A stretch of DNA of 64,000 bases from Escherichia coli O157:H7. GTDB lineage: Bacteria; Pseudomonadota; Gammaproteobacteria; Enterobacterales; Enterobacteriaceae. The stretch is from assembly GCF_013167455.1 (NCBI RefSeq), contig NZ_CP038328.1; one strand, given 5' to 3'. Below, in pieces: positions 37,201 through 43,200 of the stretch; position 1 is the first letter of the stretch, and each line of letters begins with the position of its first letter. Made by a program: the position numbers.

Positions 37201-40200
37201 CACCACTTTGTCTAATTCGTCAGATTCTGACCAGACGGTTCAGGCTGTACGCTTACATTGATACTGACAATTCAACGTCCGTCATCGCTCCCCCAATGTG
37301 TTGAGGTTAGGTAGAAATGATAACAAATACACCGCTCCTGCCCCTGTAACCTCCCCTTTTTTATACGCTCATTTTTGCGCACTTTTTCGATCATCACGTA
37401 TCGGTTTCGTTTTGCGCTTCCTGTTGCGTTTCGTTTTTGAGAAAAATGCGCAGTTTTTTGCGCACTTTTTGAGGTGTCTATCCCCCTGCAAGCCGCGTCA
37501 TATCTGGCTTTGCTCTGTTTGTCTGTGTGATCGATTTTGTGATCAGTTTTATGATCGATTTGCGCACTTTTTTGCGCATTTTTTCAGGGATTTTTCACCC
37601 CATCGAAGAGGCTTCTAAGGGGCTGTGAAGTGGGTAGCATTTTGCTGTGATGGAAGGACTACCGCTACTGTCTGATAATGGTGACGGAGGCCGCTATGTT
37701 CGGCTCTGATTGCAGCCTGCCGTATATTCACCAATTTACCTGGCTGTTATTTCCATAACCCGTAATGTCGCCGATCCCGTCTGATTCCCATATCGTCAAC
37801 AGTCTTATTTACAGCATCCTGAAGTTCGCAAGGCATATTTCCCGCCGTCTGGCTATATGTTCTCGCTGCGGATCGGTGTGGGCCTCTTTCATTACGTCAA
37901 GCCAACGAGCGGCGGCTCTTCGCCATAGTCCCTGAGATTCCAGTTGTTCGGCTTTTTTATCAGTTATTGTGTCCATATTAACTTCCGTCTCTTCGCCCTG
38001 TTTCACCCCTGTACTTCGTGCCCCGTAAAGGATCTTCTTTTTTCTGGTCAATCCCCATATCTTTAAGCGTTCTGGTCGCTGCTGCCCTGACGGCGCATAC
38101 ATGCCCCCACTCTGTTGTTTTTGGTCTGGTGGCTTTTGCCGTGCATTGCGCCCTTCGTTGGGTAATATAGTGCCTCTCTTCATCAGTTTTTGCCTGTCTG
38201 AACAATTCTCCCCAGCGTTCAGCAGCACGCCGCCAGAGGCCGCTATTCTCCAGCGCTTCAGCCTTGTCATCACGTATCATCTGTACCCCGCCGATTCTGT
38301 CCTTTCAAAATTTGTCTTATGGCTTATTGTATGAGGGATTCATCCTACAACAAGAAAGGTCACTATGAGACTGACGCAATACAAAAAAGAGATCCTCAGT
38401 TACTTCACTCCCGACAATCTGGCGTGGGTTACTGCCGAAATTGGCAGTCCGCCGTTTGATGTCTCCGGTGTGGCTTACCTGCTGCATGGTATGGATTCAT
38501 TCAACAGCCGGTATCAGATCGAATCAACAAGGCGCACGCTGGAAGCTATGGTGCGTGATGGTCTTCTTGAGCGGATTAATGTGTATGAGCGTCGTGAGGG
38601 CGCTGGTGATGGTGTTCGTCGAAAGGTGGCGCGTTATGGCCTGCCTGGTCATTCTGTTGTGGTGCGTGACGGTGAGGGCCGGAACGGTGCAATTGACGGC
38701 GAATGTATACGCATCAATGCTACAGATGTGGTGCTGGTGGAGGGGCAATAAAAAACCCTGAAAGATTTCTCCGGGTGCTCCAGTTGCACGTGGCAGAAAT
38801 CCTTCAGGGTCAGCCGTAACGGGCCTCTGTACAGAGGGCTCCAGTTGCCCAGAGATGAGCACCCGCTACAGCCTGTTGTGATAAGCCGCTTTACAGTGAG
38901 CTCCAGTTGCTCAAAGAGGCGCGTTTTTATCACAACCTGACCGCGATAACCCGCTGTACAGAGGGCTTCAATTGCCCAAAGAGGCGCATTCTTATCGCGG
39001 CATGACGAAATCACCGTGATGTTTTCGTCGTTCACTCATCCCGATGTGTGGGAGATGCACCGGAATGAGTGCCGAAAAGCCGCTGGCTGGCTTCATGCAG
39101 TCGGACTCAGTTGCCCGGGGCGAACACCATCAACGGCCTTTTGGTGGTGATTATAGCGAATCGCGATAATTGAGCAAATACGGTGATGAGATGCGTATCA
39201 CGGTAGCGCTAAATCGTCGCCTGCATCACTGAAGCTGTAATTTCTCCATTCATCCTGCGGATTAATCCCCATCTCTTTCAGCGTTCTGTCTGCGGCCTTT
39301 TTCACATCGCCAAAGGTGACGAACTGCTCAGGCATACGACGGGTTTTACTGATGCATATCGCCCGACGTCTGGCAGCTTCCTCGCGTTCACTGTCCGTTT
39401 CTGCGTGAAGAAGAACCTCAGCCCATCGGGTCGCCGCACGTCGCCATAAACCGCGCTCCTCAAGTTTCTGTGCCACGCTGTCCGTCATCACTGGCTTTAC
39501 CTCCGGCTGATTACTGCTGACTGTTTTTCTGCTTCATCTGCTCCAGTCTCCGCTTCAGTAGTTCGCTGGCTACTGATTTATCTTCTTCCGTGACTTCACC
39601 GCAAGGTTGCCCGTTCAGTCCATACCGTGCGCCGCCAGCGACAATGGCTTTCAGGTATCGCGTCGTGTGGATGTATGAGGTTAATGCGCCACGTAATACG
39701 CCATGACCAATCGCCAGTTCCCGCGCCTTCGCGTCCTGCAACATATCGTGTATCACGCCAGCCTTAAGGGGTTTTATATTCTCTGCCCCAAACAGTTCAG
39801 GCCAGTACTCAGCCAGTCGGTTTATCCTCCTGCGGTTTTTTCGCTGCCGCTTTGTCATGTGCTGCCACGGTATGCGCCGTGATGGTTTACGTGTGGTCTG
39901 GTCCTGTTGTGTGGTCTGCTGGTTCATGTTGTGCTCCTGTCATTCAGAACGGAATATCGTCAGAGAACGGGTCATCACCTCCCGCTGGTGGCTGATTCCC
40001 CCGTGTTCCGGTCTGTCGTTTTGCTCTTTCCAGTGCTTCGGTCGCCTTCCCCTGTTGCCCCCGCTTCCCGCCAGGACGCGCCGAACGGGCACTGATTACG
40101 CTGTCAGCGATAACCTGCCAGCCCTGCCGTATTTCTCCGTTCTGTCCGGTCCACTGACTGATCTGCATGTTACCCGCCACGCTGATAAGGTCGCCTTTTT

Positions 40201-43200
40201 CATGTCTCGCCAGCGCGTCGGCCTGCTTACCAAATGCCAGGACTGATAGCCATAACGTCGCCTGTCCGTCCTGTGCCTGACTGCATGGCAAAGATACCGC
40301 CATACGCGCCAGCGTCATCGGTGTGCCCTTGCTGGTCTGTTTTACCTGCGGGTCGTCCACCAGCCGTCCGTAAGCTGCAATCTGTGCTGTCATGGTCTGC
40401 GCTCCTTGTTCCGGTACTCTTGGATAATACCCATTGTCATATCGAATAAATCACATGCCGCTTTTTCTGCATCTTCCGCTTTCAGGTCATACAGCGTCAT
40501 GAAATGGTAAGTGATCGCCCGTGCTGCTCTTTTGCTGTTTGCTGCATATTTCTCATAGATTTTTCCTGCCCGCTCTTCAATATCCCGTCGGAACTCTTCA
40601 CGTTCAAACAGGTCACGGTGTATCAACATCAGCGAATCATTCAGCCATGTCACATCGGCGTATACCGTTCGCTTCCAGACAATCAGGATCGGAAGTTTAT
40701 GTTTGTCGCAGTGATGCAGATGTTCGTCAGGTATATAAAGCGTGGCTCTGCCTCGTACCGATACGAACCTCACAACAGATTCCGGTTCGGTTAAATCGAT
40801 AGCGTGTGAATGTGATTTTTTGGCGTGTTTCTCTGTCATAAAATTTTTCTCAAAGGAATAAATAAAAATTTATGCCCAAAAGGTGTTCAACTGTTCACCT
40901 TTTGCTATTTCGCCTTTAGATTCATGAAGTTAAGGGGTGAACGCTTTTTGTAAAGGTGTTCACCAACTGTTCACCCTGCTCACCCGCGACTGTTCAAAAA
41001 TCATACAAAAAGGTGAACAGGTGAATACTTTGGTGAATAGTTTTACAAAAAGTGTTCACCCATTAACATATTGATACTAAATACATTTATTGCAGGGTGA
41101 ACAGTGGTGAACAGTTTTTCTATAACTTAATTTTTATCACCCTCATTTTTCACTGGTGCACATGACGGCAGCCAGTCCTCAGACTCATCCGTCAGTATCA
41201 CGTTTGATCGCACACCTTCTTTAGTTCTCTTTTTCATATACTCCCTGCCATATTCCGCCATTGCGCCTGGCATATCTGCACCGAAGCGCGTCAGTGTTAC
41301 GGGCTTACTGAAACCGTGCGCCCTCATATACGAGAGATAGGCGTGATAAAGATAACGGCGTGGACTGAAAGGAATAATCTCAGCATTACCGACTAACAGG
41401 CCGTCACACATTACCGACGACATGAGATAGCCGCAGAAGTCCACCAGCGAATCCCCCTCACGCTTTATCGCCAGTGCTTCTTCTGATTTCTGCTGCTCAT
41501 ATAAAAGGCGTCTGGCTTCGTCCTGATCAGCAAACCGTGTAAGCAGATGACGAATCACTACAGCAAGCTCACCTTCTATTTTTTCCGGCAGCATCGGATC
41601 GCGTTCGTTTTCCGGTACAACCTCCGAAAAATTGAATATCACACGACGACGTGAGATCCCCCCGCTGCGGTCACTGAATGACATGGCGCTGTTGTTAACC
41701 GCCAGCACAACCGCCGGAATACGCGTTGAGTATGGCGCTTTGTGTTTCGGGTCAATTGCCACCTTGTCACCGCCCGTAATGGCCTTTATCCCTGCACCAT
41801 CACCCGCGTAGCGGGTCATATCCGGCAGAATAATCAGTGAAAAGCCAACCACTAATGCGCGTTCCCTTGCATCCTCCAGTGCCTTCATGCTTGCCGATAC
41901 CGTGTTGGCCTTACCTGCCAGCATGGTACAAATCTCCGCCATAACACTTTTACCGCTTCCACCAGGACCTGTTACCTCAATGAATAACTGCCAGTCGTAC
42001 CGGTTCGCCAGCACCATAAATAACGCTGCCAGAACGCGATCTGCCTTGCGGTCATTCTCAGCCACCGAACGGCGCAACCATTTCCAGAAATTCGGCGCAT
42101 GTGTTGCCAGCGTTTCCCCCTCTGCTGGTGGGCTGAAAGGTAATTCACTGGCAATTAACAACCAGTCGTTTTTGTTATGCTCCCGAAAATTACCTGTTCT
42201 GGTATCAAATACCCCGTTACTGAATCCAATCAGGTTACGGGCTGTATTCCCCATTACAGGCAAACTTAACTTCATGGTATCGACCGCCGATTTAATGGCG
42301 TTCTGCGAATAGCTGATCTCCGCATCAATGAAAATCTGTGCCATAGCTCGCTGTAATTCTTTATCCTGTACTGGCTCCCATACAACGCCGTTGTAATGGT
42401 GAACAGTGTCAGAGTCAGCATGAATCGCCAGTTCACCGCCATAATGTGCCAGGAGAACTTCGCCGCGTTGACTTGCTCCCATCTGGTTAAGCGCTAGTGA
42501 TGAAGCGTTATCGTCTTTTACCCGCTCTTTTTTCTTTACAGGCAGTTCAACTACCTTTTTCTTTTCCGCCTGCTCTGCCCGTTCACGTTCCAGATATTCG
42601 CGCCAGTTCTCCCGTTTCTGGCTGTGCATTCCTTCAGGGTAATAATCAGCATCCCTGACACCTGCCACTGCCAGTTTCTGCCCGATGGTATTAACAAGCC
42701 CCGGACGCAATAACCCCGCCTGATAGAGACGCACGCGATAGCGTCCGTCCGGTACGATTTGCAGGTTGTCCAGTTCGGCAAGTTGTTGCTCTCCAAGCCA
42801 GACAGGTGGCACGTTATCGCCAGCCAGTCGCCCGTCCTGTTCCTGCCACTGCTTCGCATGTGCCCACGCATCACTGCCAGCGAAAATAATCACTTCCGTA
42901 TCGGCGTGTTTTTTCCCTCGAGGCTGTTTTTTTAAGTTCGGTGCGCTTTTCATTTCTTACCTCTGCTGATCATCGTCATGTGGCTACCGTATTCATTGCG
43001 GTAAATATCCCCGCACATAAATTCGGGGTGAGTTTTGCTACTGGCAGTTAAGCCAGTATTTTTTGATGCCATTGAATTAATCTCCTGAAGGAGTCGTCTT
43101 AATCCTTATTTCCCGTTTATTTTTAGCCGTTATTGTTCGCCGCGTTTTTCTTCCTCCGTCATTAACCACACCGCCACATTGCTGGAAAGTTGTTTGATAA

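Follow-up and report, generated by a model that had tools for sequence, protein, structure and literature searches.

Phage-inducible chromosomal islands (PICIs) of Gram-negative bacteria carry a pri-rep gene and, after it, an origin of replication (ori) in which two iteron sets surround AT-rich DNA (PMC6092414). Genes for primase and the single-stranded DNA-binding protein (SSB) colocalize with the origin (PMC10111431), and islands of this type commonly encode PerC homologs (PMC11773190). The order primase, ori, one or more small genes, SSB and PerC has already been described for these elements, and an operon of this form is ordinary. Here we examine one of the small genes, orf149, found in a PICI-type satellite within a 64,000-nt stretch of Escherichia coli O157:H7 DNA (assembly GCF_013167455.1, contig NZ_CP038328.1; hereafter, the window). 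The gene is a 149-aa open reading frame (ORF) between the origin and ssb, and a first-pass annotation of the window considered its product a probable part of the replication machinery of the element. We find that orf149 assorts independently of the replicon. At a probability of roughly 45%, we favor a reading in which it encodes an exchangeable, dispensable accessory protein whose target, common to many mobile elements, would most plausibly be a host, helper or defense component.

Like the PICI EcCICFT073 (L030), the element has a one-directional gene series consisting of Pri-Rep, an origin of two iteron sets, a small gene that overlaps ssb by 4 nt, ssb and perC; as in PICIs of this kind, there are also an integrase, an AlpA-type helix-turn-helix (HTH) regulator, a Bro/AntA gene, Ash and Icd. 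The two differ in that the iterons of EcCICFT073 are of the GGTAGACA type, and its gene before ssb encodes an unrelated 85-aa family A protein that has only an N-terminal leader of ~18 residues in common with orf149. The present element adds proQ/finO and lacks capsid or rpp genes in the stretch examined.

The resemblance to the satellite P4 concerns replication and immunity. The alpha-like protein of the window is 50% identical to residues 320-771 of P4 alpha (452 aa), which span the helicase and origin-binding domains, the iteron octamer TGTTCACC is the same, the iterons stand just after the alpha gene as they do in P4 crr, and a C4/CI-type immunity RNA lies upstream. Unlike P4 alpha, however, the alpha-like protein lacks a primase domain, and no second iteron cluster corresponding to a separate ori was found, nor were sid, delta or psu genes seen. 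Whereas crr of P4 is followed by attP and int, the present origin is followed by orf149, ssb, proQ and perC.

Small genes between the origin and ssb

Homologs of orf149 occur in seven satellite lineages (the window; L013; L014-L019 with the Klebsiella record L118; Pantoea L002; Rahnella L028; L020 and L021; and E. coli L121). In all seven, the homolog occupies the first gene position or positions after pri-ori; SSB follows it in five, with a 4-nt overlap in four. The replicons upstream are diverse. The primase partner is P4-alpha-like in the window, a ~920-aa zinc-ribbon/Toprim/DUF927 protein in Pantoea and Rahnella, and a fusion of Toprim with a P4-type helicase in L020 and L021. The commonest repeats upstream of the homologs are TGTTCACC, TGAACCAAC, CCGGTTCA or ACGTCTAC/ACCTCTAC, and L013 has no clear repeat. 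By this comparison, the replicons that accompany orf149 comprise no fewer than five iteron types and three primase architectures.

The converse was also found. Alpha genes 93-95% identical to that of the window (89% in L032), accompanied by 7-10 copies of TGTTCACC, are present without orf149 in L032, L045, L058, L090, L094, L095 and L107. All of these but L090 carry an unrelated 81-aa gene, which we term family A; L090 has family A and a 101-aa gene of a further family, C, in place of orf149. Homology between the window and L032, L058 and L090, which have the same alpha gene and origin, stops at position 40785, 55 nt inside orf149, and restarts at 40393, the ATG of ssb. With L013, which has another primase and origin, homology begins at 40779 and continues through ssb, proQ and perC. 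The 18-codon leader of orf149 therefore belongs to the alpha/ori block, and is common to unrelated downstream genes in other satellites; its AIDLTE motif recurs in the unrelated 85-aa protein of EcCICFT073. GC content is 35% in the origin, 46% in orf149 (47% in its core) and 59% in ssb.

With orf149 homologs designated B and ssb designated S, the arrays after the origin are A-S (71 loci), B-S (at least 14), A-C-S (7), C-B-S (2), B-C-A-S (L121), A-B (L021) and B-PerC (L020). Families A, B and C are unrelated to one another and, judging from these arrays, have been combined, reordered or lost between ori and ssb rather than serving as simple alternatives. This variation is independent of both the Rep/iteron type and the SSB allele. 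The identification of families A and C with the solved PICI protein Rpp was considered and rejected, as neither has a match in the Protein Data Bank (PDB) and rppA has been placed at c1503 (PMC6739421).

The E. coli locus L121 (GCA_031701865.1, 7001-8403) carries an orf149 homolog, family C and family A in tandem, followed by ssb, proQ and perC. Overlaps of 4 nt link the first pair and the last pair of its three small genes.

Of 5,426 complete E. coli genomes, 1,648 have a match to some portion of the 3.6-kb region around orf149, but only 108 carry the gene. In O145:H28 strain RM12581 (L031, NZ_CP007136.1) and several O157:H7 strains, an in-frame deletion of 240 nt (window 40538..40777) removes the orf149 core while leaving the start codon and the overlap with ssb in place; the deleted allele is not annotated as a gene. 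EcCICFT073, with primase, ori, family A, SSB and PerC, lacks orf149 altogether.

These patterns bear directly on the first-pass proposal, that the orf149 product is a replicon-specific initiator accessory protein (Cnr-like) or a helicase loader for the alpha-like protein. Its premise was sound, in that orf149 and ssb do lie directly downstream of the iteron cluster (40840-41126) and the alpha-like gene (42953..41127), and P4 offers a precedent in Cnr (ORF106 in the P4 record), a small regulator that binds alpha. Membership in the replication machinery is nonetheless unsupported: the same alpha gene and iterons are found where orf149 is missing, orf149 occurs with other replicons, EcCICFT073 does without it, and distant homologs (see below) lie outside replication modules. 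Nor does the protein resemble either kind of factor. A Cnr-type regulator (DUF5375) was rejected on the basis of an hhalign probability of 1.4%, the predicted topology and independent assortment from alpha. An AAA+ loader of the DnaC/IstB, lambda P or DnaI type was likewise rejected, there being no Walker motif, P-loop or loader-family match in Pfam, NCBIfam or PHROG. Structure prediction, suggested at the outset as a check, returned a confident fold with a 129-residue alpha/beta core, no winged-helix or AAA+ features, and similarity only to uncharacterized proteins.

The need for a loader is doubtful in itself. P4-alpha/D5-type proteins bind the origin through a domain of their own and serve as the helicase themselves, reportedly without a loader (Ziegelin and Lanka 1995). 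The present protein combines a superfamily 3 (SF3) helicase with its own origin-binding domain, and should therefore not need one. Reps of Staphylococcus aureus pathogenicity islands (SaPIs) have been described as self-loading helicases (PMC9371898), and in the related PICI EcCICFT073 the pri-ori segment alone maintains a temperature-sensitive plasmid (PMC6092414). We thus regard an initiator-accessory or helicase-loader role as unlikely; in its replicon-specific form, which the comparative data largely refute, we give it very little credence. In mosaic elements such as these, adjacency to an origin and ssb is not evidence of a function in replication.

As noted in the first-pass annotation, orf149 and ssb overlap by 4 bp (ATGA, 40390-40393), and this overlap is predicted to couple translation of ssb to that of orf149. 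The same 4-nt overlap accompanies orf149 homologs in L013, L014-L019, L028 and L118, which include Klebsiella-type, Rahnella and other E. coli satellites, and because it recurs in this way it is no chance feature. The unrelated family A gene overlaps ssb by the same 4 nt in 65 of 66 loci, so that the overlap is kept by whichever of family A or B adjoins ssb.

It is conceivable that orf149 is mainly an upstream frame that delivers ribosomes to ssb, its protein being of little importance. In favor of this, the 5' leader and the ATGA survive both replacement of the gene body by family A and its in-frame deletion in RM12581. However, ssb has a strong Shine-Dalgarno sequence of its own (AAGGAG, 8 nt before the ATG), and the protein shows purifying selection, 45-57% identity across genera, invariant residues and a confidently predicted fold, which make this explanation highly improbable.

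The orf149 protein and its relatives

Selection on orf149 is evident from its divergence. The comparison with L013 gives a ratio of nonsynonymous to synonymous divergence (dN/dS) of 0.33; in comparisons with other genera, synonymous differences have reached saturation (proportion of synonymous differences, pS, 0.77-0.87; nonsynonymous, pN, 0.33-0.38), with 45-57% amino acid identity kept. These values show that orf149 is a genuine, selected protein-coding gene. In agreement with the first-pass annotation, we found no recognizable motif: neither the single sequence nor alignments of the family matched Pfam (searched also with a 38-member alignment), NCBIfam, PHROGs, PADLOC or PDB sequences (phmmer and profile), and no defense model of PADLOC-DB v2.0.0 was matched at E <= 0.1.

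Close homologs (45-93% identity) come only from Enterobacterales, namely Escherichia, Salmonella, Pantoea, Rahnella, Klebsiella-type contigs and Yersinia. When 1.84 billion cluster representatives were searched exhaustively with a profile, only 61 proteins were retrieved at E <= 0.001, thinly spread across Proteobacteria and beyond. Most are ~115-130 aa long and have in common the pattern W..C....P(Y/F)..V....(Y)ADV.WDYI ... A..L(F/Y)D. C44, the one invariant cysteine, P50 and A128 are invariant in this wide family, and K24 and D133 are nearly so.

The AlphaFold2 (AF2) model of orf149 is confident (mean predicted local distance difference test [pLDDT] score 82, predicted template modeling score 0.77), apart from residues 1-20, which are disordered. 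It predicts a beta-alpha-beta-beta-alpha-alpha-beta-beta core followed by a long C-terminal helix, consistent with a small alpha/beta protein (a generic alpha/beta sandwich) of an uncharacterized family. Foldseek found no PDB match to this model at E <= 0.001. The best similarities, all weak, were to the nucleic-acid-binding DHHA1/C-Ala domains (probability 0.77-0.90, template modeling [TM] score 0.34-0.41). Against AFDB50, 43 matches were obtained at E <= 0.001, from many proteobacterial genera and a few other phyla, and every one is an "uncharacterized protein".

The genomic surroundings of distant homologs could be read in nine cases; scans of genome and viral contigs contributed five of the loci, and many metagenome contigs were too short. 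Three homologs lie in prophages: beyond the tail genes of a lambdoid prophage (L009), in an integrase-proximal cluster with membrane proteins (L119), and in a Mu-like prophage (L115). One adjoins an HNH gene (L012), and another stands between GNAT and MerR-N6/N4 methyltransferase genes, near GmrSD and HEPN genes (L025). In L113, the orf149 domain forms the C-terminal part of a 441-aa protein (P0071) encoded between Gabija/GmrSD and a type I restriction-modification system; the N-terminal part of this fusion, which might have served as a Rosetta stone, has no Pfam or PHROG match. The remaining homologs follow a module of TIGR03299 and lambda exonuclease (L114), fall within a run of small genes of no known function (L116), or stand alone among housekeeping genes (L117). 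In this small sample, none of the nine contexts is a replication module, and accessory or conflict-type regions of mobile elements predominate.

A generic, non-essential replication helper, acting with SSB or single-stranded DNA at forks whatever the iteron type, is a possible but on balance unlikely alternative. Such a protein might raise replication efficiency by tuning how SSB is loaded, or by bringing a host primase or polymerase to the alpha-like protein, which has no P4 primase domain. The placement of orf149 always just after pri-ori and usually coupled to ssb, the missing primase domain itself, the L114 homolog behind a recombination module and the DHHA1/C-Ala similarity are all in keeping with this idea. 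Against it, homologs occur without SSB (L020 and L021) or two genes away from it (L121), and a comparison of SSB linkers and tips by neighboring gene family found no feature specific to orf149-linked SSBs. When orf149 was fused to its cognate SSB tail for AF2 modeling, a weak readout based on a partly paired alignment, the tail stayed disordered (pLDDT 33-46). The median isoelectric point of the family (6.9), although uninformative on function, is atypical for a nucleic-acid binder, and the Pri protein of EcCICFT073, which also lacks the P4 primase domain, replicates without orf149 (PMC6092414).

A search of 50,697 phage records with the close family (tblastn) returned no match. In a plasmid collection, the single match was L118, itself a satellite.

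The L118 record (NZ_CP033626.1, Klebsiella pneumoniae "plasmid unnamed1", 22.9 kb, circular) is a PICI-like satellite deposited as a plasmid. It encodes int, an HTH regulator, AntA/B, Icd, a primase-helicase, the orf149 homolog, SSB, PerC, a superinfection immunity gene and a tape measure gene, and its HTH-hypothetical-AntA segment is present in two copies. The circular record may represent an episomal or concatemeric form.

The restriction of the close family to satellites would suit a factor that interferes with the helper phage or redirects its packaging, as would the variable presence of orf149 if helper specificities differ. The post-ori region of PICIs is known to carry interference genes, for example rppA (Fillol-Salom 2019, PMC6739421). 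Among the post-ori genes of EcCICFT073, however, only c1503 (rppA) interfered with lambda (PMC6739421), though that element lacks orf149. Distant homologs in defense islands and other non-satellite contexts fit poorly with a helper-specific packaging role, and PHROG, PDB and structure searches revealed no similarity to capsid, terminase or Rpp proteins. We consider an interference role improbable.

The operon and the island around orf149

The features of the region are listed in Table 1. The first-pass annotation described orf149 and ssb as a coupled operon beside the origin; the coupled pair stands, but the operon is longer, with proQ/finO and a perC-like gene following ssb after gaps of 16 and 19 nt, respectively. 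On the operon strand, no terminator was predicted between the alpha-like gene and orf149.

Table 1. Coordinates of the replication region and downstream operon in the window
Feature	Coordinates	Strand	Evidence or remarks
P4-alpha-like Pri-Rep gene, 608 aa	42953..41127	-	D5_N, DUF5906 SF3 helicase, origin-binding winged-helix domain
Replication origin, 287 bp	40840..41126	unstranded	Iterons around AT-rich DNA; GC 35%
orf149, first gene after the origin	40839..40390	-	149-aa ORF; RefSeq WP_000136564.1, "hypothetical protein"
orf149 leader, first 55 nt (18 codons), MTEKHAKKSHSHAIDLTE	40785..40839	-	Assigned to the alpha/ori block; pLDDT of residues <50
orf149 exchangeable core, residues ~19-149	40394..40784	-	Recombination junctions at ~40780-40785 and 40393; GC 47%
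ATGA stop/start overlap, orf149/ssb	40390..40393	-	Sequence
ssb, 149 aa	40393..39944	-	TIGR00621, PHROG 44
proQ/finO, ProQ/FinO-domain protein, 138 aa	39927..39511	-	NF003434, FinO; RefSeq "ProQ/FINO family protein"
perC-like small regulator, 97 aa, last gene of the conserved block	39491..39198	-	PHROG 994; RefSeq PerC

The ssb product (39944-40393) is a bacterial/phage SSB. It scores above the curated cutoff of TIGR00621 (66.1 bits; cutoff 53.95), matches PHROG 44 (E 9e-40) and ends in ...GGDDPFSDDIPF, with the acidic-aromatic tip DDIPF; the tail has low pLDDT in AF2. The ProQ/FinO-domain protein matches NF003434 ProQ (E 3.5e-16) and FinO (E 4.9e-15), both under the curated cutoffs, and the perC-like gene matches PHROG 994 (E 7e-28) as well as transcriptional-activator PHROGs.

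Upstream, the alpha-like protein matches PHROG 864 (E 4e-188), the Pfam families D5_N and DUF5906 and the Pox_D5 C-terminal domain, and its C terminus matches the P4 origin-binding domain structure 1KA8 (E 1e-23). It aligns to P4 alpha from residue 148 on. Its N-terminal ~147 residues match only a function-unknown PHROG, with no alignment to residues 1-319 of P4 alpha and no Toprim or zinc-ribbon match in Pfam.

Seven of the ten exact copies of TGTTCACC in the window fall in the origin, within 40892-41113. The full 64 kb would be expected to contain about two, and a count of ten was not reached in any of 100 shuffles. Degenerate copies in both orientations extend the cluster into two opposed iteron sets that flank AT-rich DNA. 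The octamer is annotated as "ori type 1 repeat" in the P4 record, with 11 copies in crr and ori, and the cluster occupies the position of P4 crr, directly after the alpha gene. The Rep domains and clustered iterons make this a P4 alpha-type replicon, albeit one in which the N-terminal primase domain is missing.

Chromosomal islands in many genomes of Shiga toxin-producing E. coli (STEC) match the 3.6-kb region at 100% identity. In O103:H2 strain 12009 (NC_013353), the identical island lies between dinD and yicC and is annotated in RefSeq with int, an HTH regulator, an AntA/B antirepressor, Ash, an Icd-like gene, small ORFs, a "DNA primase family protein", orf149, SSB, ProQ/FinO and several PerC genes. 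An integrase, an alpA-type regulator and pri-rep followed by ori thus form a one-directional operon of ~10-15 kb that occupies a specific attachment site, as in Gram-negative PICIs. Given this gene set, the C4 RNA, the P4-alpha-like protein and the P4 type 1 iterons, the element can be classified by sequence as a Gram-negative PICI-type phage satellite with a P4-alpha-type replicon, resident in STEC chromosomes.

Rfam places the C4 antisense RNA (the P4 CI-type immunity RNA) at 43982-44069 (minus strand, 73.8 bits) and an isrK RNA at 44096-44172 (minus strand, 52.1 bits), upstream of the alpha-like gene and just upstream of small ORFs. Because of these RNAs, the satellite probably uses P4-style RNA immunity, and the ProQ/FinO-domain protein encoded by the same operon could act as an RNA chaperone for C4.

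Several further features lie beyond the operon. Two additional perC-like frames (37809-38280, minus strand) are situated ~1 kb past the perC-like gene of the operon, in agreement with strain 12009, where three PerC genes are annotated. The opposite (plus) strand carries a 128-aa ORF (38365-38751) that has no family match. Relatives with 52-63% identity occur near orf149 homologs, in Pantoea L002 (10146-10511), in the Salmonella island remnants L006-L008 and in L020, so that this ORF appears to be a second conserved satellite gene without an assigned function. An IS66-family insertion (35494-37185, minus strand) encodes TnpA-like (133 aa) and TnpB-like (115 aa) proteins and an apparently broken TnpC-like ORF. 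Its genes are missing from the otherwise identical island of 12009, which has IS2 instead.

A possible role for orf149 in satellites

In the reading that we favor, transcription of orf149 would probably come from read-through of the alpha-like gene, within a helper-induced operon. Ribosomes terminating on orf149 would re-initiate on ssb through the ATGA overlap, and the orf149 protein would accordingly be produced alongside SSB during satellite replication. Its core, a self-contained alpha/beta domain, would be passed from one satellite to another as a cassette, and the protein would act on a component of the host, the helper phage or a defense system that is met during satellite DNA replication or on cell entry. 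An auxiliary role is suggested by the mobility of the core, which is independent of Rep/iteron type and SSB allele; dispensability is suggested by the natural 240-nt deletion and by EcCICFT073, and we infer that it would extend to the present element.

Several considerations weigh against this proposal. A constant position after pri-ori and linkage to SSB would also be expected of a protein whose function is tied to replication. Among the satellites compared here that lack orf149, only EcCICFT073 is known to be functional, and its replicon specificity differs. The dN/dS of orf149 (0.33) resembles that of its neighbors (0.41), and there is thus no arms-race signature. Finally, PADLOC gave no match, no informative structural analog was found, and the distant contexts number just nine.

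A bolder version of the accessory-protein reading compares the locus with conjugative plasmids, in whose leading regions ssb is accompanied by psiB, ardA and other anti-defense genes. The satellite resembles those regions in that an SSB encoded by a mobile element is co-expressed with small, variable, mostly uncharacterized genes, with a FinO-domain gene nearby. PsiB, ArdA and ArdB/KlcA, which were not compared with orf149 directly, are not among its listed Pfam, NCBIfam and structure matches. We speculate that the orf149 family could be a new kind of mobile-element effector, for counter-defense or host takeover, that is produced alongside SSB during the time that satellite DNA is single-stranded or replicating. 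In enterobacterial PICIs, effectors (A, B and C) would then be shuffled in the stretch from ori to ssb, an unrecognized hotspot much like a leading-region anti-defense island. This is a long shot, to which we attach only limited weight.

For annotation, the lesson is that an origin and ssb next door are no evidence of a replication function in mosaic elements. What our analysis adds to the known PICI layout is modest: recombination junctions bound the interval between ori and ssb, which holds an array of as many as three small genes, unrelated to one another and specific to satellites, that have a 5' leader and a 4-nt ssb overlap in common. Within it, orf149 represents a new, uncharacterized part of the accessory gene content of PICIs. 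If one of these small genes does prove to be a counter-defense or host-manipulating factor, the slot between ori and ssb would be a simple place to seek more of them in satellites.

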